From the IMG/VR virus record IMGVR_UViG_2695420676_000011: DNA of 38,652 nucleotides, one strand, 5' to 3'. Below are positions 1-17,636 of the stretch, one piece after another (the stretch's first letter is position 1; each line of letters opens with the position of its first letter). Below the pieces are notes generated by a model. That model searched no databases. It saw nothing but the letters and a program-made list of their open reading frames with translations, and was not told the DNA's origin. A program made the translations under genes and the position numbers. The stretch comes from a virus. Taxonomy: Duplodnaviria > Heunggongvirae > Uroviricota > Caudoviricetes.

Positions 1-288
1 TCAATGGTTGGCGTCATTATCTTTTTCTCTTTCTGAACGTGAATATTGCGGTGGACGGTTCATCAGCTGTGGGGCAAGACGTTTTGCCACCTGAAGAATA
101 ACCACCACCGCAGCGGGAAGCATGAGCAAAACACCGAGAAAAATCATCAGAATCTGCACTTCTGGCCGAGAAAATGGCTCAGGCAGCGACAGGGAGTCGC
201 TTACCGACAGCAGCGCCACCGCCAGTAGCATCATTCCGATAAATTCCAGTATCAACACGCCTTTAGGCAATTTACCGATCGCGCGCAT
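1..288 (-). CDS. ybjC: Small inner-membrane protein YbjC (DUF1418 family)
   Basis: 95-aa hydrophobic ORF divergent from grxA, matching the conserved ybjC-grxA arrangement of Escherichia; stop codon at 1-3. Confidence 0.75.
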   Translation of the reverse strand: MRAIGKLPKGVLILEFIGMMLLAVALLSVSDSLSLPEPFSRPEVQILMIFLGVLLMLPAAVVVILQVAKRLAPQLMNRPPQYSRSEREKDNDANH

Positions 289-447
289 ACGCTTCCCTCT
301 GCAAAGTGAGCCTTCAGTCTAAAACTTTTCACTGTATTGTGTTTAACAGTTATAGCTTTTAGCAATTAATGCAACAGGTTAAACCTACTTTCAGCGAATA
401 CATTTTAGCGTGATCATTACAGGCATAAATCTATGAGGAGAGAAATA

Positions 448-705
448 ATGCAAACCGTTATTTTTGGTCGTTCGGGTTGCCCTTACTGTGTGCGTGCAAA
501 AGATCTGGCTGAGAAATTGAGCAATGAACGCGATGATTTTCAGTATCAGTATGTAGATATTCGTGCGGAAGGGATCACTAAAGAAGATCTACAACAAAAG
601 GCAGGTAAACCCGTAGAAACCGTGCCGCAGATTTTTGTCGATCAGCAACATATCGGCGGCTATACCGATTTTGCTGCATGGGTGAAAGAAAATCTGGACG
701 CCTGA
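448..705 (+). CDS. grxA: Glutaredoxin 1
   Basis: 85-aa product beginning MQTVIFGRSGCPYCVRAK with the CPYC redox motif; ATG at 448 preferred over the upstream in-frame start of the 433..705 ORF. Confidence 0.9.
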   Translation: MQTVIFGRSGCPYCVRAKDLAEKLSNERDDFQYQYVDIRAEGITKEDLQQKAGKPVETVPQIFVDQQHIGGYTDFAAWVKENLDA

Positions 706-714
706 TCGTCTGAC

Positions 715-747
715 AAGCCCTCGCGTTGAGGGCTTTACTGATTTTTT
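715..747 (+). terminator. Rho-independent terminator downstream of grxA, between convergent grxA and ybjM
   Basis: Hairpin aagccctc-gcgtt-gagggctt followed by a T-run (tactgattttttc). Confidence 0.6.
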
Positions 748-1112
748 CTGTGCTGTGGTTTAAACAAACTACTGATAAATAAGAAACACAGTGCCCCCAG
801 CGCACACCAGAACACCGCGCTTAGTAACCATGCCAGCTCTTGCCAGAATGAGCGCGTCGGTGAAAAAAACAGCCGCATAATGAGCATTGAACAGGGTGCC
901 GCCAGCATTGCGCCAAATAGAGGTTTCAGGACTTCTCTACGCTGTGAAAAGAAACTGGCAACTGCTCCAGGAAGAATGAAAAATAGCAAGCCGATTTCAG
1001 GATGCCCGGCAGCCCGAAAAGCGCCTTTCATGTGCGTCGCCAGAAAAAGGCACACCACAATGAAGAGGACAAAACAGCAGATTGCCCCCGCCCAACGTTG
1101 TTTATGTTTCAC
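735..1112 (-). CDS. ybjM: Inner membrane protein YbjM
   Basis: 125-aa multi-pass hydrophobic protein in the conserved position between grxA and ybjL. Confidence 0.75.
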   Translation of the reverse strand: MKHKQRWAGAICCFVLFIVVCLFLATHMKGAFRAAGHPEIGLLFFILPGAVASFFSQRREVLKPLFGAMLAAPCSMLIMRLFFSPTRSFWQELAWLLSAVFWCALGALCFLFISSLFKPQHRKNQ

Positions 1113-1381
1113 TCGTTCCTCCTGACACTGCGTCTATCGAACACATTTTTCGCCAGTGTGGCGTTCAGTAAGATAAAGCCGCTTCGCATTCCATGCTAAT
1201 ATAGGCCAACGCAATTCATATAGCCGTTGATACCTAATGTGATTACACTAGTAAAATATATTGTTACTTTACTATCGTTTAGGTGCGCTGAATGAATCTG
1301 CGCCCTGAATTCTGGTAAAAAACATTATCGTAAATTACCATTTCTTTCAACAGCTTACTAGTAAACAAGAAGTTAGCCTCC

Positions 1382-3067
1382 GTGAATATAAACGTCGCCG
1401 AATTGTTAAATGGGAATTACATTCTGTTATTATTTGTGGTCCTCGCGCTTGGGCTATGTCTCGGAAAGTTACGACTTGGTTCGATCCAACTGGGTAATTC
1501 CATTGGCGTTTTAGTCGTATCGCTGTTATTAGGCCAACAACATTTCAGCATTAACACCGATGCGCTTAATCTTGGCTTTATGCTGTTTATTTTCTGCGTC
1601 GGGGTCGAAGCCGGACCGAACTTTTTTTCCATTTTTTTTCGCGATGGGAAAAATTACCTAATGTTAGCACTGGTGATGGTTGGCAGTGCGCTGGTGATCG
1701 CCTTAGGGTTAGGTAAGCTGTTTGGCTGGGATATTGGCCTGACGGCCGGTATGTTAGCAGGCTCTATGACGTCGACACCGGTGCTGGTCGGTGCTGGCGA
1801 TACACTGCGTCATTTCGGCATGGAAAGCAGGCAGCTCTCACTGGCACTGGATAATCTGAGCCTCGGGTATGCCTTAACCTATTTAATCGGTCTGGTGAGT
1901 TTGATTGTTGGTGCGCGTTACTTGCCGAAATTGCAGCATCAGGACTTACAGACCAGCGCCCAGCAAATCGCCCGCGAACGTGGCCTGGACACTGATGCCA
2001 ACCGTAAGGTTTATTTACCGGTGATCCGCGCCTATCGCGTCGGCCCGGAGCTGGTGGCCTGGACCGACGGCAAAAATCTGCGTGAACTGGGTATTTATCG
2101 ACAAACCGGCTGCTACATTGAACGTATTCGACGTAACGGGATTCTGGCAAATCCAGACGGTGATGCCGTGCTACAAATGGGCGATGAAATAGCGTTGGTA
2201 GGCTATCCCGACGCCCATGCCCGACTCGATCCCAGCTTCCGTAACGGTAAAGAAGTTTTCGATCGTGACCTTCTCGACATGCGTATCGTCACTGAAGAAG
2301 TGGTCGTTAAAAACCATAACGCTGTAGGTAAACGTCTCGCACAACTGAAGTTGACCGATCACGGTTGCTTCCTTAACCGCGTCATTCGTAGCCAGATTGA
2401 GATGCCGATAGATGACAACGTCGTGCTTAACAAAGGTGACGTTTTACAAGTCAGCGGCGATGCCCGCCGCGTAAAAACCATCGCCGATCGCATCGGCTTT
2501 ATCTCGATTCACAGCCAGGTCACTGACCTGCTGGCATTCTGCGCCTTCTTTGTTATTGGGCTGATGATCGGGATGATCACCTTCCAGTTCAGCACATTCA
2601 GTTTCGGCATGGGGAACGCTGCCGGGTTGTTATTCGCCGGAATTATGCTGGGCTTTATGCGTGCTAACCACCCGACCTTCGGTTACATTCCGCAAGGTGC
2701 ATTAAGCATGGTGAAAGAGTTCGGCTTGATGGTGTTTATGGCAGGCGTTGGTCTGAGCGCCGGTAGCGGTATTAATAACGGCCTGGGCGCGATTGGCGGT
2801 CAGATGTTGATTGCCGGATTAATTGTCAGTCTTGTGCCCGTGGTTATCTGTTTCTTGTTCGGTGCTTATGTATTGCGAATGAACCGCGCACTATTGTTCG
2901 GCGCAATGATGGGCGCACGCACCTGCGCGCCGGCAATGGAGATCATCAGTGATACAGCTCGCAGTAACATCCCTGCGCTGGGCTATGCGGGCACCTACGC
3001 AATCGCCAACGTCCTGCTGACGCTGGCAGGGACAATCATCGTCATGGTATGGCCAGGATTAGGATAA
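1382..3067 (+). CDS. ybjL: Putative AAE-family transporter YbjL (two TrkA-C/RCK_C domains)
   Basis: 561-aa ORF with GTG start and N- and C-terminal membrane domains around a soluble core; length and N-terminus match YbjL. Confidence 0.85.
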
Positions 3068-3179
3068 AACTGAAGTTGCCCTGAAAATGAAATTTTTTTG
3101 CACAACCGCAGAACTTTTCCGCAGGGCATCAGTCTTAATTAGTGCCACTGCTTTTCTTTGATGTCCCCATTTTGTGGAG

Positions 3180-3222
3180 CCCATCAACCCCGCCATTTCG
3201 GTTCAAGGTTGATGGGTTTTTT
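3180..3222 (+). terminator. Rho-independent terminator about 110 bp downstream of ybjL
   Basis: Perfect 10-bp stem cccatcaacc / ggttgatggg with a 17-nt loop, followed by tttttt. Confidence 0.65.
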
Positions 3223-3302
3223 GTTGCCTGAAATTTATGCCGTTTAAAATCATGACGTTAGAAGCACTGTTTTTTAACGATGGCGACAAAATGGCGGCAG
3301 CG

Positions 3303-3521
3303 TCAAAGAGAGAGCGCCACCTGTCCTGATTTCATTGGATGCGGCTGAACCGGATTTGACTCTTTTGGCGTTGCAATCGAACGAACAAAAGTTTCATGGG
3401 TTACAAAAGTATGGCTGCAGTTAATATTCTGGCACTGGTTGTAACGCTCTTTGGTCAATGAAGATACCTGAAAACTGCTGCGAGTATGGGCGGCACTTCC
3501 ACACAGTGGGCAAATCATCAT
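3303..3521 (-). CDS. ogr: Late transcription activator Ogr/Delta family (C4 zinc finger)
   Basis: MMICPLCGSAAHTRSS...CQNINCSHTF zinc-finger pattern typical of P2 Ogr; start moved to an internal Met with a GGGAGAA RBS. Confidence 0.8.
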   Translation of the reverse strand: MMICPLCGSAAHTRSSFQVSSLTKERYNQCQNINCSHTFVTHETFVRSIATPKESNPVQPHPMKSGQVALSL

Positions 3522-3611
3522 TTTTCGAGTTCTCCCCATTTTTGCTAAATTCACAATAATGATACCGCATTATTCCATTTTGCAAACTTAAAAGTTCTCC
3601 ATTGCGAAGAA

Positions 3612-4712
3612 TCATTCCATTTCGAAATCATCAATCCTCACTTCAAGCTCCAGACTGGTTGTAAAACCGTTATCGGGGCTGACGGTATGCGTCAGAGTCG
3701 TAATGGTCCATTCCGCATCATCTATCGGTTGTTTAAAGCCACTAACTTTCACTGGCATTTCCGTGTAAAGATCTGCCCGCCCTTCCGCCAGTTGTAGCGA
3801 GAATGACGCAACGCCGCGTTGCAGGCGTTCCCACTGCATTTTCGCTGCCCGTTCAGCGTTGCTCCGGTTGGCATAAGTGCGATTAAGTACCAGCACGTTT
3901 TCATCCGTACCCACCAGGTAATCGCCCTGCTTCGCTTCCGGCTCTTTCTTCTGCTTCTTAGTTCTGCGCTTACGCTTCACCGTGGTGCTTTCTTTCTTCG
4001 CAGGTTCGCGGGTATGCAACCAGCTGGCAATTACGCCCGTGTAGGCTCCGCGATCTGCCAGGGTAAAGCGGTGACTGTCGCCGTCCTTGCGTGTGATAGT
4101 GATCACTGGCAGTGGTTTACCAGTGGCGCTTTTGCCCTGCCCCTGCCGGATGAATAACAGATTGCCATTTTTCACCGACGCGATGGCACCGTACTGTCGC
4201 GCCAGCCGCATCAGAAAACTACCGTCACTCTCATTAGTCTGGTCTATATGCTCCACGAGCTTATCCGACAGGTCTTTACCCAGTACCATCTTCAGCTTGT
4301 GCCGCGCGGCTATCTCCTTCACCACTTCCCCAATGGTGGTCTTGTGCCACGATTTTTCACGGCGGGTATTCAGCGTTTCCCGAAAATCAGCACTTCGCGC
4401 CCGGATAGTCAGGCGGTCCGGTGCGCCAGTGTGTTCAATCTCGTCCACCGTGAATGCCCCTTTCGGGAAAAGCGGCTGCCCCTTCCAGCCCAGCGCCAGC
4501 GTAATGACCGCACCACGGCGCGGCAGCACGATTTTCCCGTCGGCATCGTCCAGCTCCAGATCAAGCTGGTCTGCTTCAAAGCCCCGATTGTCCGTCAGAG
4601 TCAGACTCATCAGGCGGTTATCCAGCACAGTGGTGATATCCCTACCCTCAATACTGATGCTGAATGCCGGAGTTTTGTTGCTTTTGTTAAGCAGTTCAGA
4701 GCTGAAATTCAC
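3612..4712 (-). CDS. D: Tail protein gpD (late control gene D)
   Basis: 366-aa product in the P2 gpD position with recalled gpD-like sequence; 4-bp overlap with upstream U. Confidence 0.85.
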   Translation of the reverse strand: MNFSSELLNKSNKTPAFSISIEGRDITTVLDNRLMSLTLTDNRGFEADQLDLELDDADGKIVLPRRGAVITLALGWKGQPLFPKGAFTVDEIEHTGAPDRLTIRARSADFRETLNTRREKSWHKTTIGEVVKEIAARHKLKMVLGKDLSDKLVEHIDQTNESDGSFLMRLARQYGAIASVKNGNLLFIRQGQGKSATGKPLPVITITRKDGDSHRFTLADRGAYTGVIASWLHTREPAKKESTTVKRKRRTKKQKKEPEAKQGDYLVGTDENVLVLNRTYANRSNAERAAKMQWERLQRGVASFSLQLAEGRADLYTEMPVKVSGFKQPIDDAEWTITTLTHTVSPDNGFTTSLELEVRIDDFEME

Positions 4713-5194
4713 GACAGCAGCCCTCCCACCGTTTTACTGATATCGCTTAAGGCAGACGTTGCCGTTTCCTGCAGATTATTCAGTTGCGCACTGAGATCAC
4801 CGAACATATCGGACAGGGATTCATCCACCCGTTTGAGCGACAGGGTGAACTCAATCCGGCGCGGCATACCGTCGCGGAAAAACTCCGTTTTAGTCTGATT
4901 CAGTCCCTCAATCACATACATGCCATAAATCGTGCCGCTGCCTTCAATCAGGGGCCATGCTTTCCCCTGTTCTGCCATCTGCTCCAGTGCCAGCAACGAC
5001 AGCCTGCCACCTGTTATCTCCGGCATAAGAACACCGGAAAGCGTCAGCATGTCGTTGTCCGGTCCCAGAAACTGCGTGGACGGACGTCGGTTTACCCGGC
5101 TGTTTGCCGCATGTCGCCAGCTGCGTTGATACTGCAGCTCCTGATACGGCACGGTGCGCAGCATAAACACGTACAATCCCAGCACCATCATCAT
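4709..5194 (-). CDS. U: Tail protein gpU
   Basis: 161-aa product between T and D, as in P2. Confidence 0.8.
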   Translation of the reverse strand: MMMVLGLYVFMLRTVPYQELQYQRSWRHAANSRVNRRPSTQFLGPDNDMLTLSGVLMPEITGGRLSLLALEQMAEQGKAWPLIEGSGTIYGMYVIEGLNQTKTEFFRDGMPRRIEFTLSLKRVDESLSDMFGDLSAQLNNLQETATSALSDISKTVGGLLS

Positions 5195-6753
5195 GCGTCG
5201 TATCCCCCCTGATCGCTGTAGTTACTCCTGGCTTTTGCCTTCAGCCTACGTTCACGTTCATCAAGCTGGCGGGCCACCTCCCGCGCAATATCCTGCGCAC
5301 TTTGTCCTGGCTGCGTCTGAATGATGATCTGCATCGGTGCCTCAATCCGTTGAACGGGCGGCACAGTGGCTGCACGACTCACCATCGCTTCGCCGCCTTT
5401 CGCGGGAAGTGCCAAAGGGTGCAACGGTGGAAGCTCTGCAGGCGCGGCAGCAACGCCCATCATTCCGGCAACAACGGCAGCCAGTGCAGCTGTATTTCTC
5501 CGGCTGGTCACATTTGCCGGGCCGTTAACAATTTCCGGCCCGTTTTCACCGACGATGCCAAACTGCCCGCGCGGGATATAGCCGCCGCTGTCATACATCC
5601 CCGCAAAGCCATATCCCCATGACGGAAAACCACCCGATGGCATCATCACTTTACCGTCTGCATTCACCGTCGCAGGTTGCTGACGCGTCACGCTTTCCGG
5701 CAGTTTCGCCTTTGCAGCCTCTTTACTGACAATGCCGAGTTTATCCAGCAACCAGGAAACGCCAGATTTCAGGGAGTCCAGCGGATGCATAACCATATTC
5801 AGCCCTTCCGCCAGTGCCTCCCCGAATCGTCGCCCCATTGCCGCTGCGCTCTGCAGTTCGGCAGAAGTCGACTTAACGGGCGTCAGCAGATCAGTAAACC
5901 AGCCCCACAGCGCCTGCACTTTGTCACCAATCCACTGGAACACAGGCTTAAGCGGTTCGAACGCTGCACTGATGGGACCTGCCGCCGCTTTGAATCCTTC
6001 CACCACGCCACCGAGAAATGCGGTGATGGGTTGCCAGTATTTCCAGACAACCAGTGCCACACCCGCCAGTGCAGTAACCACAAGACCTATCGGACTGAGC
6101 AGAGCACCTAACAGACCAGATACGGCATACAGGGCAACGCGCAACATCGCCAGTGGACCAGATGCCAGTACTCGCAGCACCGTGCCTGCGGCAGCCAGCC
6201 CGCCGCGTAGTGCTGCCAGTGGATTCATAAACATCACAGCAACCGCACGTAAACCGGATAATCCAGACCGCAAAAGTGCAACCGGCGCACCTGCTACAGT
6301 TTTCAGGACATTTCCCGTCAGTGATGCCGTGCGGCGCAAAGACGACAACGGCGCAGTAAGTAAACCTGCGGCGTTGCCCGATGAAGCAAGCCCGCGTCGC
6401 AGCAGTGCCAGTGGTGCGCCAGCCAGCCAGGACAACGCGCTGCTGGTTCGAGTTACTGCTGCCGTAACGGAAGATAACGTTTTGATACCCAACACAGAGA
6501 ATCCCAGACGGATCACTGCCAGCGGCCCCAGCACTGCAGCCAGCGCCACCGCTAAGGTGCCGAGGCCGACGGTAACCGCAGCCACAACAGCCGATGCTTT
6601 CATCAGTGTGCCTGTCAGTTCCGGGTTAGCTTCCACCCAGCGACGCAACGCCCCCGTGACGCTTTTCACCGTGTACAGAATATCCATCAGCGGCTGGCGC
6701 AGCGTTTCGCCCAGGCTGCTGAAGGTGTTCTGCGCTCCGGTTTTGACCAGCAA
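5191..6753 (-). CDS. T: Tail tape measure protein gpT, C-terminal segment (separated from N-terminal segment by an in-frame TGA)
   Basis: 520-aa Ala/Gly/Leu-rich ORF beginning at a TTG immediately after the TGA at 6754-6756, in the same frame as 6754..8268. Confidence 0.7.
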   Translation of the reverse strand: MLVKTGAQNTFSSLGETLRQPLMDILYTVKSVTGALRRWVEANPELTGTLMKASAVVAAVTVGLGTLAVALAAVLGPLAVIRLGFSVLGIKTLSSVTAAVTRTSSALSWLAGAPLALLRRGLASSGNAAGLLTAPLSSLRRTASLTGNVLKTVAGAPVALLRSGLSGLRAVAVMFMNPLAALRGGLAAAGTVLRVLASGPLAMLRVALYAVSGLLGALLSPIGLVVTALAGVALVVWKYWQPITAFLGGVVEGFKAAAGPISAAFEPLKPVFQWIGDKVQALWGWFTDLLTPVKSTSAELQSAAAMGRRFGEALAEGLNMVMHPLDSLKSGVSWLLDKLGIVSKEAAKAKLPESVTRQQPATVNADGKVMMPSGGFPSWGYGFAGMYDSGGYIPRGQFGIVGENGPEIVNGPANVTSRRNTAALAAVVAGMMGVAAAPAELPPLHPLALPAKGGEAMVSRAATVPPVQRIEAPMQIIIQTQPGQSAQDIAREVARQLDERERRLKAKARSNYSDQGGYDA

Positions 6754-8268
6754 TCACTGCGCAGAAAGTGAATCCTTGTTAATGTCGGATTCTTTCTGCA
6801 TGGAGCCGAGCGCATCATTGCCCGCTGTCAGTTTTAACTGACGCTGCAGTTCCGGCAGGTTGTTTGCCAGTTTCGCCGCGTCATCGCCAAACTCTTTACC
6901 AAACAACATAGTCATGGCAGACAGGCGCTTGTCCTGCGGCAGCGCGTTTACCTTCTCCAGCACGCGCTGGATGGTTCCCATCGCATCCTTCGTCATCTGC
7001 TTTTCAATCACTTCAGGATTGAGTTTCAGCAGATTCATCCCTTCAAAGAAACTCTTGCTTTGCATGGTGGCAATGGACAATTCACGCACCATCGCGTTTG
7101 CTGCACTGGCTGCAACCTCTGGCGCAGCGCCCAGTGTCAGGAAGGTGGAACCCAGCGCCGCCGCTTTACGATAATCCAGACGGTCAGCCACACCGCCCAG
7201 ACGTTGCATCACATCAATGATGTCTGCCCCTTTCGACATGGCGTTATCATCCAGATAGTTCAGCGCATCACCGAGCTGTTCAATATTGCGGGTGGGGATT
7301 TTGTAGAGCTGGGCGATTTTCCCCAGACTTTCTGACAGTTCATCCGCTGGCAGCTCAAAGGCTGTTGCCGCCTTTGCTGCCGTACTGGCGAAGGCCAGCA
7401 GGTCACGTTTCTGATCTTCCCAGCTGTCGTCAGGGTTTGCGACGTTCATGCGCGCACCACCTTCAACCAGTGCAGCGAAGTCCACCGCACCGTTTTCCAT
7501 CGGCAACTGTTCGCTGGCAGCCTTGATGGCATCCTGCATTTCATAAAAACGTGCAGTGCGGTTGCCATTATCGTCACGCAGACCATTGACCTGCTTTGCC
7601 ACACCTTTCATGGCATCTTCCATGCTGGTATAGCTTTTTACTGCCGCCATCACTGGCGCACCCATTGCCAGCCCTGCAGCCGTGGTGGTGGCTCCGGCAC
7701 CTGCAATACGATCACGCACCTCCAGCGAACGGGCATAACTGGCACGCGCTGCATTCATCCTGCGCTGAGCTTCCCCCAGTCGCTTCAGCCGCGCCTCCTG
7801 TTTCGAAAGTTCCTGGTTATAACGTGATGTTTCACGGGCTAAACGGGCAGTTGCTCCCGCATCGTCTTTCGCAGAAATTCCCGCCCGGTACAGTTCAGCA
7901 CGCACAAGCGCCGTCTGCTGCTGCAGCTTTTTCTGGCGTTCTTCCAGGCGCTGAACAGCCAGCCGTTGACGGCCCAGAGCAACAACCTGACGTTGCGAAG
8001 GCGGCCCCATCGCTCCCAGTTCCTGACTGAGCAAATTTGCACGCTGGCGGGCATAGTTCAGCCTGTCGCCTAATTTCTGATTTTCTGCCTGCAGCTTTCG
8101 GAAGCTGTCCAGACTGCTCCCGGCCTGATCAAGCTGCTTTATTGCATCGCGGGATTTTTTGACAGCAGCAGCCAGTTCTCTTGAACTGGCCTGCGCAGAT
8201 CGAAATGGACGGGTGAGCTTGTCAACCGCATTAAGAATGACCTGCAGACGCAGGTTGTTATCACTCAT
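6754..8268 (-). CDS. T: Tail tape measure protein gpT, N-terminal segment (ends at in-frame TGA)
   Basis: 504-aa coiled-coil-like product starting MSDNNLRLQ; its ATG overlaps the E' stop as in P2. Confidence 0.75.
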   Translation of the reverse strand: MSDNNLRLQVILNAVDKLTRPFRSAQASSRELAAAVKKSRDAIKQLDQAGSSLDSFRKLQAENQKLGDRLNYARQRANLLSQELGAMGPPSQRQVVALGRQRLAVQRLEERQKKLQQQTALVRAELYRAGISAKDDAGATARLARETSRYNQELSKQEARLKRLGEAQRRMNAARASYARSLEVRDRIAGAGATTTAAGLAMGAPVMAAVKSYTSMEDAMKGVAKQVNGLRDDNGNRTARFYEMQDAIKAASEQLPMENGAVDFAALVEGGARMNVANPDDSWEDQKRDLLAFASTAAKAATAFELPADELSESLGKIAQLYKIPTRNIEQLGDALNYLDDNAMSKGADIIDVMQRLGGVADRLDYRKAAALGSTFLTLGAAPEVAASAANAMVRELSIATMQSKSFFEGMNLLKLNPEVIEKQMTKDAMGTIQRVLEKVNALPQDKRLSAMTMLFGKEFGDDAAKLANNLPELQRQLKLTAGNDALGSMQKESDINKDSLSAQ

Positions 8269-8697
8269 CGTTGGCCCCGCTTCTCTGAATCGCTTTATAC
8301 CGCCATTCCAGCACTTCGGTCAGCGGCATAACGTCAGTAACGGATGGCGGCCAGTGAAAAATGGTGGCGATATCTGCCACCAGATCGTCAACCGTCAGGC
8401 TGTCGGTAAACCGGCAAGCACCGACTTCTTCAACAAAAAAGTGACAACCTCAACCGACATGGCAGTGAGATCTGCCGGGTCCATCTCTGCAATTTCCTGT
8501 GCAGTCAGTGCCGGACTGGAGATGCGGGGGATCACGGTCATCATCGCGTTTACATCCATATCCATAATGGCCTGCAGGCGTGTACCGCGCAGCGCACCGG
8601 ACTGCGGTTTACGCAGCACAATTTCGGTGATTTCTGTTTTACCGCGCTTGATGGGGGTATCCAGTTGAATGGTCTTTTCAGTCTGCTTATCGCTCAT
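8261..8697 (-). CDS. E': gpE+E' fusion made by -1 programmed ribosomal frameshift
   Basis: Reading from the slippery site in the -1 frame gives an open extension ending at TGA 8261-8263, overlapping the T start codon. Confidence 0.6.
8395..8697 (-). CDS. E: Tail assembly chaperone gpE
   Basis: 100-aa ORF directly upstream of T with a T_TTT_TTG slippery heptamer near its 3' end. Confidence 0.85.
   Translation of the reverse strand: MSDKQTEKTIQLDTPIKRGKTEITEIVLRKPQSGALRGTRLQAIMDMDVNAMMTVIPRISSPALTAQEIAEMDPADLTAMSVEVVTFLLKKSVLAGLPTA
8434..8440 (-). other. Slippery heptamer T_TTT_TTG for the E/E' -1 frameshift
   Basis: Minus-strand TTTTTTG located 13 codons before the gpE stop. Confidence 0.6.
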
Positions 8698-8751
8698 TTT
8701 GCTGTCCTGTCAATTGGGTTCTGGCGCGGTATCCCGCGCCGTTCAGATATA

Positions 8752-9267
8752 TCAGAGGCCGAGGGCGTTGCGGTGCGCTTCCATCAGGTCCACACCGTCC
8801 ACAATTTCCACCATGTTGATAAGGTCCACTTCATAGAGCACCTCACCATTGATGGTCAGCTTCGCGTAGCTGTTGGTACTGGTCACTTTGGTGGTGTTGC
8901 TTTCGCCCGTCTTCCACTCGCCGGAATCCACTTCTTTGTGACGTCCACGCACGACAAGCTCCACGGCCTGCACTTCCCCGGTATCGTCACGCTGAATAGA
9001 GCCGGTAAAGCGCAGCTGGATGCCATCCACCGTGGCTTTACCCATCTGTTTAAACAGCAGCAATTCAGTACCACCAATGGAAAATTCTGTGTCCAGCGCA
9101 CTGTCATCAAGCCCCAGATCCACATCCACCGCACCCGGCATTCCGCCGCCGCGATACTTCTCATATTTGCGGGTAAATTTCGGCAGCGTCAGCGACTCAA
9201 CGATCCCCTGCCAGTTGTTCCCGTCGTTAAACAGGTTCAGGTGTTTTAATTTGCGTGGTAATGCCAT
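8752..9267 (-). CDS. FII: Tail tube protein gpFII
   Basis: 171-aa product starting MALPRKLKHLNLF, matching recalled P2 FII N-terminus. Confidence 0.9.
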   Translation of the reverse strand: MALPRKLKHLNLFNDGNNWQGIVESLTLPKFTRKYEKYRGGGMPGAVDVDLGLDDSALDTEFSIGGTELLLFKQMGKATVDGIQLRFTGSIQRDDTGEVQAVELVVRGRHKEVDSGEWKTGESNTTKVTSTNSYAKLTINGEVLYEVDLINMVEIVDGVDLMEAHRNALGL

Positions 9268-9276
9268 GTTGTCCCC

Positions 9277-10449
9277 TTACGCGCTGACCTGGCTGGCGAA
9301 ATTCACCAGGTACTGATCGGTGATGCGCTGACGCAGCATCAGGTTTTCAAGTGGCGGCACTGGCGTGTAGTCGTAGTCGATGGTGAGTTTTCCGGCTTTC
9401 AGCGTGTCTTTGTCGTTCACCGACTCATCCAGCCAGCAATCACCACCAATGAGATAGCCCTGACTGACCAGGCTGCGCATTTTGGCGCGGATACCTTCGA
9501 TAATGTCGCGGGCCAGCGACGGGTTAAGCGGTTTATCCACCGCCCACATGTGTGCTTCTGCCATCGTGTCCATCAGCACCTGCGCCGTGCGGGTGTAGTT
9601 TTCGAAGGCAAAGAGCGGGTCATCACTCAGGCAGCGGGAACCCCAGAAGCGGAAACCGTCTTTACGCACAAGCGTGGTGACGTCGTTCTGGTTCAGCAGA
9701 CCTGCATCGGTTGCCGGGTCCTGCAGATCCCAGAACACATCTGCAGAAATTCCGGTGACACCGTTCACGCCCACGTTGGACAGGCTTTTGTGCCATCCGG
9801 TCTGCTCGTCAATTTTGGCGCGCAGACCAAGCGCACGGGCGGTGGCATATGCCGTTGCTTCGGCATTCAGCACCGTGTCCCAACCAGTAAAGTCAGGCCA
9901 GATCAGCATCCCTTCGCGCTGGCTGAAGTTTTCGCGGTAAGTGATCGCCTCCTGCACTGTCTTGCAGCCATACGCTGACAGGTAAGCAAATCCACGCAGG
10001 CGTTGCGCCACGCTCAGCAACTCAGTAGCTACCGCCTTGGTGTCGTGGCCTGGCACGCCGAGAATGCGCGGTTTAACGCCGAGCTGTGACTGGGCAGATA
10101 ACAGGGCTTTCATACCTGTTTTTTTACCTTCAGCAGTCACTGCGCCGATGATATTGGTCGTGGTTTCGTCTTCCGTTTCACCCTGCGGCACACGCACAAC
10201 AATGGTCACGGGTTTTGCCTGGTCAGCGATGGCATCCAGCGAACGGGCCAGAGTACCTGACTCACCCGCTTTACCGCTGGCAGTCAGCACATCAGTGATC
10301 AGCACGGGTTTATTAAGAGGAAACATTTTTGCATCGGCATCATCGCCCGTGCAGACCATACCCACGATGGCGGTGCTCACCGTGGTAATAGATCGGGTGC
10401 CTTCGTTGACTTCAACAACGCGCACCCCGTGGTGGTAATCCTGAGCCAT
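9277..10449 (-). CDS. FI: Contractile tail sheath protein gpFI
   Basis: 390-aa product starting [19 protein letters not shown], resembling P2 FI. Confidence 0.9.
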
Positions 10450-10525
10450 AGTGGCGAACCTCCTGATTGGATTAGGCTTCGCCCTATGTTGAAGTGATTG
10501 TGCCTGACAAACAGCTAAGCGCAGT

Positions 10526-10543
10526 TGTGTCGTTATTCACACA
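10526..10543. promoter_or_regulatory. Candidate Ogr-dependent late promoter element (TGT-N12-ACA) upstream of FI
   Basis: TGTgtcgttattcacACA dyad about 80-95 bp upstream of the FI start codon. Confidence 0.5.
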
Positions 10544-10591
10544 AAATAACGGTATTTGTCTGCTTGCAGGGATAATCAACATAATGCTGAT

Positions 10592-11164
10592 TCAGGGGGA
10601 TTCATTGATCTTATTTGCCGGAAATTTTCTATAAATGGTAGAAACGCCTACATCAAAAATCAGTGCAATACGCTGTATTGATTCTCCGGCCTCGAGTAAA
10701 CGCCCAATCTGTGCCCACTGTTCGGTGGTCAACTTAGGACGGCGTCCACCTACTCTGCCTTTGGCACGAGCTGCAGCCAGCCCTGCCCTGGTACGTTCAA
10801 CTATCAGTTCGCGTTCCATTTCAGCCAGGGCACCCATGACATGAAAAAAGAAACGGCCCATTGGGGTACTGGTATCAATACTGTCAGTCAGGCTTCTGAA
10901 ATTCACACCACGCTGGCGCAACTCTTCTATCAGCGTAACAAGATGCCGCATACTGCGCCCCAACCTGTCCAGCTTCCAGACAACCAGCGTGTCTCCTGCC
11001 GATAGTGTCCTGAGTAGTTTTTTCAGCCCCGGTCTGTCGGACTTAGTGCCACTGATTTTGTCCTCAAAAATCCGCTCACATCCCGCGCAGTTCAGTGCAT
11101 TACGTTGCAAATCGGTGTTCTGGTCATTTGTTGACACGCGTACATAGCCAATAAGCATGATCAT
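10592..11164 (-). CDS. Serine DNA invertase (Hin/Gin/Cin/Pin family)
   Basis: 190-aa product with the IGYVRVSTNDQ catalytic-serine N-terminus and a C-terminal HTH. Confidence 0.9.
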   Translation of the reverse strand: MIMLIGYVRVSTNDQNTDLQRNALNCAGCERIFEDKISGTKSDRPGLKKLLRTLSAGDTLVVWKLDRLGRSMRHLVTLIEELRQRGVNFRSLTDSIDTSTPMGRFFFHVMGALAEMERELIVERTRAGLAAARAKGRVGGRRPKLTTEQWAQIGRLLEAGESIQRIALIFDVGVSTIYRKFPANKINESP

Positions 11165-11185
11165 CCCCCTGAATAAAAACCGGAG

Positions 11186-11521
11186 ATGATGCCAGTTAGC
11201 TGGTACCTCTGCATTTTCTTAAACGTTGGTTTTGGAGAAGGTGCTAACTGGGTTATGTTACCTGGAGGAATGATAATTCAGCGTGTTTATCTTGGATTTC
11301 CTATTGGCACCAATGCAAGACACATAACTTTCCCCCGGTCGTTTACAACAACGAACTATTCCATCTCAATTAACTGGAATGATATCGGTACTGTAACAAC
11401 TGAAACACAATCACCAGCAAATGTGGCGGTTGTTCATCAAACAAAATCATTAACAGGGGCCAGCATCTGGCAGGCAGGTCCCGGGGGATTTAATGTGGAC
11501 ATTATAGCGGTGGGGTATTGA
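11186..11521 (+). CDS. Alternative (silent) tail-fibre C-terminal cassette
   Basis: Plus-strand ORF running out of the left crossover site (FGEGANW junction), lacking its own N-terminus. Confidence 0.55.
11216..11244. repeat. Invertase crossover site (hix/gix-like), left
   Basis: ttcttaaacgttggttttggagaaggtgc; the 17-nt core ggttttggagaaggtgc recurs inverted at 12955-12971 with one mismatch. Confidence 0.6.
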
Positions 11522-11522
11522 T

Positions 11523-11951
11523 ATGTACGTATGGAGCGCTAAATCAAATGGCTTTTTCCCCATATCGGAGAAAGAAAAATTTGAGGCATCAGGTCTGTGG
11601 CCTGATGATGGTGTAATAGTCAGTGAGGAAGAACATAAAAAGTTATTTATGGATATTCCACCAGGAAAACAGATTGGAACACTGAATGGAAAACCAGCAC
11701 TGATAGATATTCCTCAGCCGACCAAAAAGGAATTAATAGCTATTGCTGAAGTTAAAAAATCCCAATTACGGGAAAAAGCTGACAGTGAAATATCCTGGCG
11801 TCAGGATGCTGTTGATGCTGATATCGCAACTGATGAAGAAACTTCAACTCTCACCGAATGGAAGAAATACCGTGTGCTGCTGATGCGTGTTGATACTTCA
11901 ACAGCACCCGATATTGAATGGCCTACGCCTCCGGCAGTTCAGGCCAGATGA
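11523..11951 (+). CDS. Alternative tail fibre assembly chaperone (Tfa/gpG family), inverted cassette
   Basis: 142-aa ORF immediately after the silent fibre cassette; C-terminus ([14 protein letters not shown]) parallels that of the minus-strand Tfa. Confidence 0.6.
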
Positions 11952-12516
11952 CATCCGGCGCGGTGCTGGTATCTGTTGCCGTCACCGCGTCAATGTAATC
12001 CAGCACGGTGTTAAGTCGGGTTGTTTCTGCCTGAGTCAGTTTCCGTCCGGCCTGTAATTTCAGCTGAATCAGACTAATGGAAGCCATTACTGCATCAATC
12101 AGTGACTGGCGCTGTGCTTCTGCTGCTTCTACTGCGGCGTTATGCTGTGCCTCAGTATCTGTCACCCATTTCTCACCATCCCATTTATCATATGGCGTTA
12201 ACGGTGAAAGCGTGACATAACCGTTTTTGATGGCACCGATATAATCCACTGTAACAGCTGCGCCATTTTCTGTTGAGTAAACAGTCTCATTGCGATGGTC
12301 TTCTTCATGGCTCCATCCCTTACCCGTAAATACTGCCACTTTCCCCGGAATGTTTTCGCCCGGGTCAATACCAGTGGAACAGGCGGGCATACTTACGCCA
12401 GTATTAATATATTCATCAGACCAGCCCGTATACTCAGATGTTTCAGCATCATAATAAAAACAACGCATATCGCCCGGCACTGTGGCCAGCCCATTTTCAT
12501 CAAAAACAGGTTTCAT
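11923..12516 (-). CDS. G: Tail fibre assembly chaperone (gpG/Tfa family), expressed cassette
   Basis: 197-aa ORF directly downstream of the tail-fibre gene, ending [15 protein letters not shown]. Confidence 0.75.
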
Positions 12517-13541
12517 TATTTAGCCCTCACCAGAAAGTTAAATGCAATATTTCGCGGTCTGACAGCAACAAAATTCACACCATCACCCACAGAGTTACTG
12601 GTGAAATTAAATCGTGAAAATCCTGGCTGATTTCCGGCGATGCCATCATGAAAGTTAATTGCGTGTCCCGCACCTCCGCCTATATTCCCGGCAAACTGAG
12701 AAAAGTTTGTAGCTTCCTGCCAGCTTAATAATTCGCGACCACCGTCTGCACCTCGCCCGTCATCCCAGATACGAATGAAATCACCGCGGGCTTCAGGTAA
12801 TACCAGCGAAGGAAATACTTTCGCCAGCACAGGATAATCAGTGGCAGAGAATTTCGCGCCGTTGAACTTCAAAAACACCATACTGGACCAGCTGTCGATT
12901 ACAGTATTTGGCATTGCAGCGGACGGCCAGAAGAACGGAACGCCAATAGCTGGAGCACCTTCTCCCAAACCAAGGTATGTGAGAAGACCAGCTACATCCT
13001 TTCCACTCAAATTGGTAAGCGTATTGTCCAGCGGTTGTTTACCTGCCAGCGCATTAAGCATTGTCGTGGCAAAGTTCGGATCATTCCCCAGTGCCGCCGC
13101 CAGTTCGTTCAGTGTATCCAGTGCAGCAGGTGCAGAACCCACCATTCCTGCAATCGCCGATTTCACAAAAGCCGTAGTGGCAATCTGTGTATTGTTGACC
13201 GACTGCGCCGCCGTGGGGGCTGTTGGCGTTCCGGTGAGTGCCGGACTCGACAACGGTGCTTTTAGTGCCAGCGCATTGTTAATGGTGGTACTGAAATTCG
13301 GATCATTGTTAATGGCTGCGGCTATTTCTTTCAGCGTGTCCAGCGTGGCTGGCGCACCATTAATAAGGGCCGTCAGTGCCGCCTGTACAAACGCAGTGGT
13401 CGCAACCTGCGTGGTATTATTCCCCGCCGCTGGCGTTGGCGCTTTGGGGGTTCCGGTAAATGTCGGGCTGGCTTTTGGCGCGTACTGTGAATGCGGGTCC
13501 GGTGCGGCAAGATGTTTTGCCATCTGATCATCCGCGTACAC
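12516..13541 (-). CDS. H: Tail fibre protein gpH, C-terminal segment (frameshifted relative to N-terminal segment)
   Basis: 341-aa repeat-rich ORF with no proper start, abutting 13544..14020 in a different frame. Confidence 0.7.
   Translation of the reverse strand: MYADDQMAKHLAAPDPHSQYAPKASPTFTGTPKAPTPAAGNNTTQVATTAFVQAALTALINGAPATLDTLKEIAAAINNDPNFSTTINNALALKAPLSSPALTGTPTAPTAAQSVNNTQIATTAFVKSAIAGMVGSAPAALDTLNELAAALGNDPNFATTMLNALAGKQPLDNTLTNLSGKDVAGLLTYLGLGEGAPAIGVPFFWPSAAMPNTVIDSWSSMVFLKFNGAKFSATDYPVLAKVFPSLVLPEARGDFIRIWDDGRGADGGRELLSWQEATNFSQFAGNIGGGAGHAINFHDGIAGNQPGFSRFNFTSNSVGDGVNFVAVRPRNIAFNFLVRAK
12955..12985. repeat. Invertase crossover site, right (inside the tail-fibre gene)
   Basis: Reverse complement gives ggtttgggagaaggtgc; encodes the GLGEGA junction of the tail fibre. 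Confidence 0.6.
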
Positions 13542-13543
13542 CT

Positions 13544-14020
13544 TCAGCTCCAGTGCCTTGTCTCCACATACTTGCGGGTTGCCAGCACTACAGCAGGGTC
13601 GATTTTCAGGGTGATATTGTCCGTGCTGCTGGTAATCAGCACCATGCGCACGGTCTGAGTGCGCCCGCTACCTTCAGCCAGTTGCGGCTTATAGCTTTCC
13701 GGGCAGTTGCCCACGGCAATCAATGCCCCGGACTCATCAAACAAGCCCACTTCACGTATCCACCAACCGCCCTCGTTTTCAGGGATCACCTGTTCGGCAA
13801 TAATCTGGCTGCTGTTCTGCGGGTCGATATAAAGCATATTCAGCGCAGCCCGGCGTTTCTCATTTACCAGTGCCGTCTGCTTTGCGTCCGGCGTTGGCAA
13901 TACTCCACCGCCATCGCCCACCGCCATATGGGTAATTTTTAGCGGCACACCGAGCGCGGCGGCGCTGGCAAGTTTCGCCGCGCCAATATCCGTCAGCAGG
14001 GTATAAAATTTTGTGCTCAT
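13544..14020 (-). CDS. H: Tail fibre protein gpH, N-terminal segment (truncated by apparent 1-bp deletion)
   Basis: 158-aa product starting MSTKFYTLLTDIGAAKLA, resembling the P2 gpH N-terminus; ends ...YVETRHWS* where P2 has YVDDK. Confidence 0.7.
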   Translation of the reverse strand: MSTKFYTLLTDIGAAKLASAAALGVPLKITHMAVGDGGGVLPTPDAKQTALVNEKRRAALNMLYIDPQNSSQIIAEQVIPENEGGWWIREVGLFDESGALIAVGNCPESYKPQLAEGSGRTQTVRMVLITSSTDNITLKIDPAVVLATRKYVETRHWS

Positions 14021-14622
14021 GGATTCACTCTCATTGTGTCAATAACATGGACCGCCCCGCCTTCATGCGCGGTGCCACCGGAAATAATCGTTTCGTTGAT
14101 ATACGGATAGATCGTGATTTCTTCGCCAAGATAGCTGGCGGCTCCCACCCAATGCGGGCCGCTGGTCTGCAGATTGATGGACATGCCGATCATGTGGCGG
14201 CTACATGGTTTGGCATCGCTTATCAGTCGCTCAAGTTCCAGATAGGTATCTTCAGTGATGCCCTGGTCCTGCACGCCGATATCCAGGCGAAACGTGCCCG
14301 GTGTTTCTCCGGTCTGCCACCACTCAATAATGCGGATCAGGAATCCGAACGGCTCCACCACCCGCCGCACGGCACTGGTGGTCCCTTTATGCTGATGAAT
14401 ATAAAAAGCATCCTTCACCACCTGGCGCTTGACGCTTTCTGTCCAGCCCTCGTCCCAGCGATCCACAGAGAACGCCCAGGCGAGATAAGGCAGGAAACTG
14501 ACCGGACAGGTTGCCGGATTCCACAAGTCACGAAGCGGCACCTGCAGATCAGAAATCCCGCTGCAGGTTTGCGCCAGTCGGCGCTCCAGTGGTGTTGAAC
14601 CCGGTGGCAGCAAACTATTCAT
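14017..14622 (-). CDS. I: Baseplate protein gpI
   Basis: 201-aa ORF in the P2 gpI position, overlapping neighbours by a few bases. Confidence 0.8.
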   Translation of the reverse strand: MNSLLPPGSTPLERRLAQTCSGISDLQVPLRDLWNPATCPVSFLPYLAWAFSVDRWDEGWTESVKRQVVKDAFYIHQHKGTTSAVRRVVEPFGFLIRIIEWWQTGETPGTFRLDIGVQDQGITEDTYLELERLISDAKPCSRHMIGMSINLQTSGPHWVGAASYLGEEITIYPYINETIISGGTAHEGGAVHVIDTMRVNP

Positions 14623-15523
14623 CCGTTCCTCCGTTGGTTACGCTCCACTGCGTACATGATGCCGCCTGTGTTTTGTTCAGGACCACATCCGCCAGAGGAG
14701 AAGCCAGCTCCACACGCTGCACCCCCTCAACATGCAGGGCGGCAAAGATGGCGCTACGGCGAATATCCCGACCAAGACGCGTCTGACTGGCGATGTACTT
14801 CTGCAGGCTGGCTTTTGCCGCTGCCATTACCGGCTCTGCTTCCGGTCCAGGATAGAGAAAAATGGTGGCTTCCACGCGATACGGGATGATTTCTGCGCTG
14901 CAAACCGTAAGACGGTCAGCCACCGGGCGGACGTTCTCACTGTTCAGAGCTTTTTCCACCACGTCCAGCAGGTCTTTTTCTGCAGTTCCATCGCCTTCGC
15001 GGCTAAGGACAGTCAGCACCACCTCTGCAGGTGCCGGGCTGGTTGCACTGGCATCCGCCACCCGACCGTCGGCGCTTCGGGCATGAAATTCATAAGCTGC
15101 AGTTGGCCCCGCAACAGAAAGCCCTTCAAAGGCTGCAGGCACACGCAGGCGTAACGCTTCATCGCTTTCCATCACAGCTGCAACGGGCGGCACAGCATCA
15201 TTATCAGCAGGCGTCACCGTCAGGCGTGTCACGTTGTAGTTGGCAGCGAGCTGGTCAAGATCGCCGCCCATCGCGTAAGCCACCATCACCGCCTGCGCGG
15301 CTTCGTTAATGCGCTGGCGCAGAAGCAACTCACGGTAAGCATTCTCCTGCAACAATTTAGTGGCGGGTTCAGATTCCAGTTCCAGCGTGCGGATCACTGC
15401 TTCCTGCTCATCTTTCGGATGAAGCGCCACAAATTCTGCCTTGCGTTCGGCAAGCAGCGTCTCAAAGTCCGGCACATCCACAATCTGCGGTGCAGGCAAC
15501 TGCGAAAGGTCAATCACTGCCAT
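14615..15523 (-). CDS. J: Baseplate protein gpJ
   Basis: Product starting MAVIDLSQLPAPQIV, like P2 gpJ; start moved to the internal Met with an AGGAG RBS. Confidence 0.85.
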   Translation of the reverse strand: MAVIDLSQLPAPQIVDVPDFETLLAERKAEFVALHPKDEQEAVIRTLELESEPATKLLQENAYRELLLRQRINEAAQAVMVAYAMGGDLDQLAANYNVTRLTVTPADNDAVPPVAAVMESDEALRLRVPAAFEGLSVAGPTAAYEFHARSADGRVADASATSPAPAEVVLTVLSREGDGTAEKDLLDVVEKALNSENVRPVADRLTVCSAEIIPYRVEATIFLYPGPEAEPVMAAAKASLQKYIASQTRLGRDIRRSAIFAALHVEGVQRVELASPLADVVLNKTQAASCTQWSVTNGGTDE

Positions 15524-15869
15524 TCTCTGCTCCTGTTGATACGGAAAGGGACACAGGCACACCGTTATTCCGCCGCCCGGTCAGCTCCACCACCATTGAA
15601 CCGTCAAAATTGCTGTTGATGGTGATGGAATCCAGCGTCAACCGTGGCTCCCAGCGACTCAGCGCCACATACACTGCCGACATGACCTGCAGGCGTAATG
15701 CCGGATTTTGTGGCTGATCTATCAGTGCCGACAGCAGGGAACCATATTCCCGGCGGGCAATACGGCTACCCTGCGGTGTCAGCAGAATGTCCCGCACCGA
15801 CTGGCGCAGATGATCAATATCAGTAATGACTTTGCCGCTGGTATTGTTCATCCCGCTATAAAGCGTCAT
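15510..15869 (-). CDS. W: Baseplate protein gpW
   Basis: 119-aa ORF between V and J. Confidence 0.8.
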   Translation of the reverse strand: MTLYSGMNNTSGKVITDIDHLRQSVRDILLTPQGSRIARREYGSLLSALIDQPQNPALRLQVMSAVYVALSRWEPRLTLDSITINSNFDGSMVVELTGRRNNGVPVSLSVSTGAENGSD

Positions 15870-16444: not shown

Positions 16445-16490
16445 AGGGAAAGGTTGCCATCAGGGGAAGAAAGGCGGCAGTGCTGCAACT

Positions 16491-16508
16491 TGTATCAGTG
16501 CTGATACA
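16491..16508. promoter_or_regulatory. Candidate Ogr-dependent late promoter element (TGT-N12-ACA) upstream of V
   Basis: TGTatcagtgctgatACA dyad in the 68-bp S-V intergenic gap. Confidence 0.5.
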
Positions 16509-16512
16509 AAGA

Positions 16513-17404: not shown

Positions 17405-17636
17405 TAATCATGTCCACTTTGTCTGCACAGACCGCCCAGGCGGCCTCCGTTTCATCCAGCAACGCGTTCAGATCACCGTTAGTGCGCGGCGTTGCCTGAT
17501 CCAGCCGACACGGCGTCACTCGCGGACAACCACTGACGGTAAGCCATACCTCCGGTGAGTGCCGGACGTTTCCGCAGCCGGATAATGTCAGCAGGCAAAG
17601 GAGTATCAGCCCAGCGGCGTAAATCCTCGTTCTCAC
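17346..17636 (-). CDS. lysC: Outer-membrane spanin lipoprotein (LysC/Rz1-like)
   Basis: Signal peptide with lipobox LTLSGC and a Pro-rich tail; embedded out of frame in the 3' end of lysB. Confidence 0.65.
   Translation of the reverse strand: MRTRIYAAGLILLCLLTLSGCGNVRHSPEVWLTVSGCPRVTPCRLDQATPRTNGDLNALLDETEAAWAVCADKVDMIIACQERNSEQTTIPAPRPQ

Follow-up and report, generated by a model that had tools for sequence, protein, structure and literature searches.

A single in-frame TGA codon interrupts the tape measure gene in a P2-like prophage (Peduoviridae) located beside rybB/ybjL in E. coli. It is very probably a genuine nonsense mutation, passed on by vertical descent, in a grounded prophage that is decaying. 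The window, i.e., the whole stretch of 38,652 nucleotides analyzed here (IMG/VR record IMGVR_UViG_2695420676_000011), contains two large open reading frames on the minus strand, 6754..8268 (504 aa) and 5191..6753 (520 aa). A first-pass annotation had proposed that both lie in the same frame and are parted by the TGA alone, which was confirmed on the sequence and its translation. The minus strand around the stop reads ...GAT TCA CTT TCT GCG CAG TGA TTG CTG GTC AAA ACC GGA GCG CAG..., corresponding to ...DSLSAQ*LLVKTGAQ..., and continuous translation of 8268..5191 gives 1025 codons with this TGA as the sole internal stop. The gene is composed as follows:

8268..5191, minus strand: tape measure gene, gpT homologue; 3078 nt, 1025 codons including the internal stop.
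6757..8268, minus strand: 5' portion of the gene, covering codons 1-504 and holding the PhageMin_Tail domain.
6756..6754, minus strand: premature TGA stop at codon 505 of the 1025-codon gene; wild type codon TGG (Trp505).
5191..6753, minus strand: 3' portion of the gene, covering codons 506-1025 and the native stop, with hydrophobic repeats and the C-terminal region.

The mutation is a G>A change at nucleotide 1515 of the gene, equivalent to C>T at position 6754 on the plus strand. The supposed TTG start of the 520-aa reading frame is Leu506 of the intact gene. No Shine-Dalgarno sequence precedes this TTG directly 3' of the TGA or the next in-frame starts of the 3' half, and a start signal of its own was not found for this half. 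An internal restart was rejected, as no start bears a Shine-Dalgarno sequence. Codons 1-504 are expected to be the only tape measure segment with efficient translation. Two in-frame reading frames of ~500 codons with one stop between them, which in relatives form a single gene, do not arise by chance.

In a search with Pfam profiles, the 504-aa reading frame scored 69.3 bits for PF10145 (PhageMin_Tail; cut-off 33.2) over residues 246-457. The whole frame 8268..5191 runs colinear with tape measure proteins of 1025 aa from E. coli L73 and the phages 500465-1 and Cartapus, and residues 1-1025 align in one frame and over the full length with T of Cartapus at 88.6% identity. The joint product of about 1,025 aa, earlier judged tape-measure-like from its composition, can thus be assigned to this family. 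A single uninterrupted ruler polypeptide is not encoded, owing to the TGA at codon 505.

Codon 505 is TGG in E. coli L73 and likewise in phage 500465-1; the sequences L001 and L002 read TGG. The gene differs from that of E. coli L73 at 42 nucleotides, with TGG to TGA as the sole nonsense difference, and the protein at 9 amino acids, stop included. Trp505 is kept among P2-like tape measure proteins and beyond, down to ~30% identity. All homologues examined (nine phages and E. coli L73, 99% to ~28% identity) carry one CDS spanning the site, and there is thus no natural gene boundary at codon 505. Alignment to these intact genes gives TGG (Trp) as the expected sense codon, and a single G>A transition suffices to account for the stop, in agreement with the nonsense mutation that the first-pass annotation had ranked first.

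The gene order FI, FII, E, E', T, U, D, ogr matches that of P2-like phages and places the tape measure gene between the frameshifted chaperone pair (E/E+E') and gpU/gpD, the position of its family:

8264..8697, minus strand: tail chaperone genes E and E+E', directly upstream of T; PF10109 and PF06528, both intact.
4709..5194, minus strand: gpU homologue, tail protein; PF06995.
3612..4712, minus strand: gpD homologue, last gene of the FETUD tail operon; PF05954, intact.

E and E' are 100% identical to those of Cartapus. The native T stop (TGA, 5193..5191) overlaps the gpU start (ATG, 5194..5192) in the motif ATGA, an arrangement indicating that translation of gpU is coupled to that of the 3' end of T. 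About 1.56 kb of mRNA upstream of gpD is predicted to be largely untranslated owing to the stop. In comparison to the functional phage Cartapus, all late genes are full length except T and H. Cartapus served as the reference for intactness because the record of phage 500465-1 (NC_049342) was dropped for this purpose; it holds host genes, IS fragments and split genes. Judged from its sequence, the locus derives from the gpT family and is at present a pseudogene.

The exact TGG version of the local 61-mer was found in 339 complete-genome records; no TGA or TAG version turned up in 5,426 complete E. coli genomes. A further look-up on the rarity of the stop, among GTDB species representatives, returned 0 matches. 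The identical 3078-nt gene with the TGA is present in seven other public contigs (L004-L008, L011 and L012), derived from 4 NCBI assemblies, 2 Logan runs (SRA/ENA) and 1 ENA metagenome assembly and covering at least three studies; outside the gene, these contigs show 0-3 SNPs relative to the window. The exact 504-aa product has already been deposited (CTS44822.1 and others). The carriers are distinct isolates of one clone, with the same insertion site, near-identical flanks and zero SNPs across about 8 kb of tail genes. To judge from these records, the TGA allele is heritable in a small clone and no assembly artefact. Since the prophage is otherwise remarkably intact and its tail genes are free of SNPs within the clone, the TGA appears to be recent.

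The second late gene that is not full length is the tail-fibre gene H:

13544..14020, minus strand: truncated 5' reading frame of H, 158 aa, its frame shifted by a 1-nt deletion.
12516..13541, minus strand: out-of-frame remainder of H, a 341-aa reading frame extending into the invertible segment.

The deleted nucleotide lies between 13563 and 13562 and converts GTGGATGACAAGG to GTGGAGACAAGG. Against Cartapus, H aligned in two HSPs in different frames. The frameshift is found in the window and in contig L005 and is absent from the sister isolate L007, which carries the TGA, so that the TGA must have arisen first. The isolate behind GCA_001284165 is an example with the TGA and an intact H. The H deletion is, by this comparison, a second inactivating lesion of the prophage, and it strengthens the earlier reading of a defective tail. 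The H lesion itself had escaped the first-pass annotation.

Taken together, the locus displays the hallmarks of a nonsense pseudogene, i.e., a single-nucleotide change from the sense codon of its relatives, a heritable allele and a further lesion, in H. The term decay is grounded here in two lesions only, in a prophage whose immunity genes are intact and in which the invertase and the SIR2-HerA pair are present.

Ribosomes would terminate at codon 505 and free a 504-aa N-terminal fragment, which would lack the hydrophobic repeats and the C-terminal region that docks on the baseplate spike in P2; there, the C-terminal helices of the tape measure protein rest on the spike gpV (bioRxiv 10.64898/2026.09.14.750843). 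Tube polymerization would then be untemplated and normal tails would not be built; by homology with P2, we infer a loss of tail formation. Expression of U and D would probably be lowered by the lost translational coupling together with Rho-dependent polarity, and gpU is likely under-expressed because of the upstream stop. The H frameshift in the window would block infectivity regardless. The grounded prophage may be kept along with its defence cargo, namely the pairs SIR2-HerA and PDC-M03 located at the gpA-gpQ hotspot (PMC9122126), while its tail genes decay.

Of the competing explanations, a functionally meaningful leaky stop survives best, even if we consider it improbable. Here, decoding by Trp-tRNA would keep the phage viable at a very low burst wherever H is intact, maybe as a throttle responding to growth state. 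Read-through of UGA in E. coli amounts to 1e-3 to 1e-2, is set by the competition of Trp-tRNA with RF2 and varies with metabolism (PMC10570021; PMC4989110; PMC7918605). As UGA read-through inserts Trp, it would produce traces of exactly the wild type tape measure protein, and 3-6 chains of this protein suffice per tail (bioRxiv 10.64898/2026.09.14.750843). The remainder of the prophage is intact. UGA being the leakiest stop, isolates without the H frameshift might release rare infective particles, which speaks against a complete loss of function.

However, the TGA is confined to one clone and occurs in 0 of the 339 complete-genome records sharing the 61-nt context. The next base is U, and among the UGA-N termination signals UGAU works most efficiently. 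A hairpin brackets the stop (z = -2.1), but TGG alleles differ from its sequence at the stop codon alone, which argues that it was not selected for read-through; a signal specific to the mutant allele was not found. That all carriers share one chromosomal site with near-identical flanks fits vertical descent over infection, and the later H frameshift in the clone suggests relaxed selection. Assembly would be depressed further by the surplus of N-terminal fragment as well as by polarity affecting U and D.

As a programmed feature, read-through is likewise unsupported, since the stop is absent from functional relatives, close and distant ones carrying TGG, and no mutant-specific signal accompanies it. 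Neither the hairpin nor the scans for RNA families and tRNAs revealed a dedicated stimulatory element or tRNA. RybB was the only match of the Rfam scan, with no RNA family or SECIS at the stop; the window holds no tRNA genes, no suppressor tRNA was found, and no internal promoter or terminator was detected near the stop. The read-through codon, which the first-pass annotation had listed as the less likely option, does not hold as a programmed feature, although low-level background read-through of the UGA must still occur. Under the favored reading of a nonsense mutation, near-cognate decoding by Trp-tRNA at roughly the above rate would remake trace amounts of wild type protein as a by-product, not by design.

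Still less credible is an adaptive grounding, in which the host selected loss of the tail at Trp505, keeping immunity and defence cargo and shedding the cost of phage production, with TGA and TAG as parallel outcomes. Contig L009 (SRR3240968) indeed has TAG as codon 505. Its prophage is of another haplotype (44 differences in the tape measure gene), and its host flank likewise differs (10 SNPs in 3.3 kb). The prophage in the window, for its part, bears the two defence pairs described above. However, no codon is turned into a stop more easily than that of Trp, for which two transition routes are available. In control look-ups, candidate truncated products ending before other nonsense-prone codons were present at 6 of 10 positions, each in 2-7 contigs, some of them 20-67 kb long, and contig-end partials alone appeared at 4 of 10 control positions where no single-base change yields a stop. 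These controls, together with the two transition routes, render an extra event at codon 505 unremarkable in a collection of ~15 billion proteins. Moreover, a tail defect leaves induction and lysis working, so that a benefit to the host is doubtful.

A mutational hotspot at codon 505 was rejected, as the controls show truncated forms at other codons also; on sequence, the site lies outside any Dcm (CCWGG) site. Contigs L010 and L013, considered as further carriers, have no stop at codon 505 and simply end at codon 504/505. We give as little credence to the idea that an opal codon at Trp constitutes a "self-correcting" lesion, with isolates lacking the H frameshift releasing rare infective particles according to the balance of Trp-tRNA and RF2, and with codon 505 (TGA here, TAG in the other lineage) as a recurrent host throttle of a defence-carrying prophage.

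The two remaining explanations carry next to no weight. A sequencing or assembly error with TGG as the true codon, also put forward in the first-pass annotation, could account for a one-base difference from all complete genomes, judged here from assemblies, but is effectively excluded by the seven contigs from different projects, which share the base yet differ from the window at other positions, and by the 339 TGG records of the same 61-nt context, which make a context-driven systematic error unlikely. A natural two-gene arrangement, or programmed recoding by selenocysteine or a suppressor tRNA, might be suggested by the long adjacent reading frames, the TTG right after the stop and the bracketing hairpin, but is contradicted by the single CDS of the homologues, by the lack of a Shine-Dalgarno sequence, of tRNA genes in the window and of Rfam matches other than RybB, and by the TAG at the same codon in a second lineage, which UGA-specific recoding cannot explain.

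For annotation, the two reading frames should be treated as one disrupted tape measure pseudogene and not as two proteins. Prophage-calling and phage-induction studies should score this prophage as probably defective. The locus provides a clean, datable case of early prophage decay, with the nonsense mutation in T followed by the frameshift in H. It involves no new mechanism; lesions of this kind are commonplace when a prophage degenerates at its insertion site.

T is an essential tail gene in P2, and a premature stop in T is a classical route to tail-defective P2. P2 gene T belongs to the PF10145 family, as does the tape measure gene of the window, and its amber mutants affect the same place in the operon, after E/E+E' and before U and D. 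Whereas the P2 mutants are laboratory ambers, the stop in the window is an opal that arose naturally and is fixed in a clone of wild E. coli. The window's protein of 1025 aa (815 aa for P2 gpT) has as its nearest relatives the tape measure proteins of Cartapus (Elveevirus) and 500465-1 (Wadgaonvirus) rather than P2 gpT.

The A1 read-through protein of Qbeta and leaky opal mutants offer a second comparison, as UGA is decoded as Trp in these cases; here, Trp is the native residue. Qbeta needs both the stop-terminated and the read-through product. Its stop is conserved, whereas that of the window is absent from all functional relatives and carries no sign of selection for read-through.

A third parallel is found in defective, "grounded" or cryptic prophages, in which point lesions build up serially in structural genes, here the TGA in T and then the H frameshift, and regulatory, immunity and accessory or defence genes remain intact, as they do here. 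Bobay, Touchon and Rocha (2014, cited in PMC7918605) reportedly described defective prophages decaying via point mutation. Such decay by point mutation is documented for defective prophages (PMC6379469), and mobilome genes are where in-frame stops occur most often (PMC7918605). In comparison to grounded prophages in general, the prophage in the window represents a very early stage, with two lesions, no deletions and all other late genes at full length.

Translation of the minus strand from 8268 to 5191 in one piece yielded 1025 codons with a single internal stop, a TGA at codon 505 (6756..6754). In the mechanical ORF list the same stretch appears as two same-frame minus-strand ORFs, 6754..8268 (504 aa) and 5191..6753 (520 aa), and the sequence around the stop, ...TCA CTT TCT GCG CAG TGA TTG CTG GTC AAA ACC..., reads ...SLSAQ*LLVKTGAQ.... 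The first-pass annotation had described this TGA-split pair correctly, including its coordinates, and had taken it for a tape measure gene of about 1,025 aa. This identity holds, as the 504-aa ORF matches Pfam PF10145 (PhageMin_Tail) with 69.3 bits (cut-off 33.2) and the gene, T, is a single 3078-nt CDS of 1025 codons in E. coli L73, phage 500465-1 and phage Cartapus. When the 601 nt surrounding the stop were searched, they matched tape measure genes in about 1000 complete E. coli genomes as well as in Klebsiella phages and Escherichia phage 500465-1 (Wadgaonvirus); the top matches have a single mismatch in 601 (99.8% identity).

A P2-like (Peduoviridae) prophage fills almost the whole window, with gpU and gpD homologues and ogr downstream of the stop and the E', E, tube and sheath genes upstream. 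The RybB sRNA gene (3147..3225, plus strand; Rfam, 105 bits), the only Rfam family in the window, lies between ybjL and ogr just beyond the ogr end of the prophage, and is probably at or adjoining the attachment site. The opposite window end stops just past the aligned integrase coding region, and the second attachment site falls outside the view. In the RefSeq 'complete phage genome' of 500465-1 (NC_049342.1), host genes (smpB, recN, nadK, grpE, ffh) take up about 10 kb, IS21 fragments are present, and the portal and terminase genes are split. As a raw prophage prediction, this record serves poorly as a standard of intactness.

Alignment to intact homologues, suggested in the first-pass annotation, identified TGG (Trp) as the expected sense codon. 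Base-by-base comparison with E. coli L73, which has TGG at codon 505, places a G>A change at gene nt 1515 (plus-strand 6754). The Gln-Trp pair is kept in the tape measure proteins of Yersinia MLG42 and Salmonella SEN8 (85% identity over the aligned segment), Salmonella SEN4 (59%), Aeromonas LPM4 (55%), and Pseudomonas Persinger and Achromobacter Mano (~32-34%); in the protein alignment, Shigella SfIV and one Pasteurella phage have Leu at this position. A natural gene boundary, which would have spoken against a split gene, is not seen, since one annotated CDS crosses the site in every distant tape measure record aligned. In a Klebsiella phage KP12 clone (OM835953.1, 1..2584) the annotation divides the homologous gene into two overlapping CDSs; the frameshift there is near gene nt 1930, a site other than the codon-505 stop. 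The record is classed as Vequintavirinae, yet this segment is P2-like.

The 3078-nt gene with TGA, identical to that of the window, was found in seven other contigs (L004-L008, L011 and L012) from four NCBI assemblies (GCA_001285585, GCA_001284985, GCA_001284025, GCA_001284165), Logan assemblies of ERR4783774 and SRR18174172, and one ENA metagenome assembly. L005 matches window 1..18268 at 100% identity and is probably the window's source or twin; the other carriers have 1-3 SNPs relative to the window, most of them in the chromosomal flank, and all share one insertion site. Gene identity, 0-3 SNPs and the common insertion site indicate that the TGA allele belongs to one small, repeatedly sampled clone. 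Several GenBank accessions (CTS44822.1 and others) in the public protein collection also correspond to the exact 504-aa product, named tape measure protein. Judged from sequence comparison, the TGA is a real, heritable nonsense mutation in the prophage tape measure gene, the option ranked first in the first-pass annotation: relatives have TGG, a single G>A separates the alleles, and the TGA gene recurs identically in seven contigs.

Within this clone, chromosomal nfsA carries a nonsense change (C362A, Ser121 to stop) in L005 (18252..18974), the member matching the window, and in L008 (11216..11938), and is intact in L004. This gene is located beyond the window, some 15 kb from the T stop. NfsA loss is known as a step on the way to nitrofurantoin resistance.

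A read-through codon had been ranked as less likely, and programmed read-through is unsupported, the stop being unconserved and rescue signals lacking. No tRNA gene was found in the window, and no promoter-like or terminator-like sites within 250 nt of the stop. The TTG directly after the stop is Leu506 of intact T, and a Shine-Dalgarno sequence is lacking both there and at the next in-frame start codons. A hairpin in the minus-strand RNA (6690..6766) encloses codon 505 with an 8-bp outer stem (UUCUGCGC/GCGCAGAA) and a 5-bp inner stem (dG -34.7 kcal/mol for 91 nt, z = -2.1). TGG alleles have the same sequence except for the stop codon, and the hairpin has no SECIS resemblance and no known role. 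The base after the TGA is U, and UGA followed by U is the most efficient UGA termination context. UGA is also the leakiest E. coli stop, with quoted read-through of 1e-3 to 1e-2 and insertion of Trp (PMC10570021; PMC4989110; PMC7918605), so among nonsense changes only TGG to TGA yields the wild-type protein by background read-through, and trace amounts of full-length T protein are expected. We regard such read-through as a by-product and not a design, because the stop is unconserved, all carriers look vertically related and U follows the stop.

Sequencing error, the remaining option, is excluded for practical purposes by the seven identical genes, and a systematic error is very unlikely because the same context was read as TGG hundreds of times (339 records contain the otherwise identical 61-mer). 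The TGA form is rare: its 61-mer occurs in 0 of 5,426 complete E. coli genomes and had no exact match in GTDB species representatives.

A mutational hotspot at codon 505 was considered and dropped. A contig from Logan SRR3240968 (L009, 2877..5954) has TAG at the same Trp codon, in another prophage haplotype (44 differences in T) and another host flank (10 SNPs in 3.3 kb), and is thus an independent event; the TAG 61-mer is absent from complete E. coli genomes. Two further contigs, L010 and L013, break off at gene nt 1514 and 1512, respectively. As a control, N-terminal truncations of T ending before other codons were looked up in a collection of ~15 billion proteins. Candidate truncations occurred at 6 of 10 other nonsense-prone codons (2-7 contigs per position, some contigs 20-67 kb) and at 4 of 10 codons unable to become stop in one step (1-2 contigs per position, all labelled partial, contigs 2-6 kb); the latter indicate that contig-end partials account for L010 and L013. 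A Trp codon has two transition routes to stop, and one extra nonsense event there is within expectation for a collection of this size.

The nonsense mutation should affect more than T itself. At 5194..5191 an ATGA joins the native end of T to the start of gpU, so premature termination 1.56 kb upstream would be expected to lower U, and probably D, through lost coupling and Rho-dependent polarity, as in nonsense polarity generally. The P2 tape measure protein occupies the tube lumen with C3 symmetry, its C-terminal helices resting on the spike gpV inside the baseplate (bioRxiv 10.64898/2026.09.14.750843). We infer that normal tails should not form from a 504-aa fragment without this spike anchor and the hydrophobic repeat region.

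Every protein of Cartapus, which has a defined cos site and intact genes, was compared with the window. All late genes are full length except T, with its internal stop, and the tail-fibre gene H, which aligns in two pieces in different frames and runs into an invertible segment:

13544..14020 and 12516..13541, minus strand: pieces of H, split by a 1-nt deletion
11214..12985: invertible tail-fibre segment with 32-nt inverted repeats (11214-11245, 12954-12985)
10592..11164, minus strand: Gin/Cin-like invertase, adjoining the invertible segment

The deletion, GTGGATGACAAGG to GTGGAGACAAGG, falls between window 13563 and 13562 (GATGAC to GAGAC). Because it precedes the invertible segment and lies in the part of H that stays constant, it abolishes both fibre variants. 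It is common to the window and L005 and absent from Cartapus, 500465-1 and the TGA-carrying sister L007, which over 7.6 kb has one mismatch to the window in addition to the H gap. Since L007 carries the TGA with an intact H, the TGA is the older lesion and the H frameshift a second, later inactivating hit in a sub-lineage, the order that relaxed selection after a first inactivating mutation would give. In the window, the H frameshift would block infectivity regardless of T read-through. The invertible segment lies in the opposite orientation in the sister isolates L004, L006 and L007, indicating that the invertase is active, or recently was, in the clone despite the broken fibre gene. Two sister contigs also connect the prophage unexpectedly to other sequence: L007 (GCA_001284165.2 CYDZ01000025) joins gpD at window 4372 to H at 12590 (8350..8362), and L004 has a 666-aa ORF and yehR-side genes upstream of the invertase (4549..7080). 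Such connections reflect either true rearrangement or assembly across P2-like sequence that is repeated.

The region between portal gene Q and replication gene A is a known P2 defence hotspot (PMC9122126), and two pairs lie there in the window:

27512..28570 and 28546..30426, plus strand: SIR2 and HerA anti-phage defence pair (PADLOC SIR2 697 bits, HerA 885 bits; Pfam SIR2_2, DUF87)
25280..26020 and 26017..26931, minus strand: HIRAN-domain protein and HipA_C-like protein, matching components B (310 bits) and A (406 bits) of the PADLOC candidate system PDC-M03, adjoining the portal gene

The split T gene is no new kind of feature, and its truncated product is already deposited as a tape measure protein. 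In-frame stops are commonest in mobilome genes (PMC7918605). The TGA allele parallels, in nature, the nonsense mutants of P2 gene T obtained in the laboratory, and the prophage that carries it represents a textbook early stage of prophage decay.
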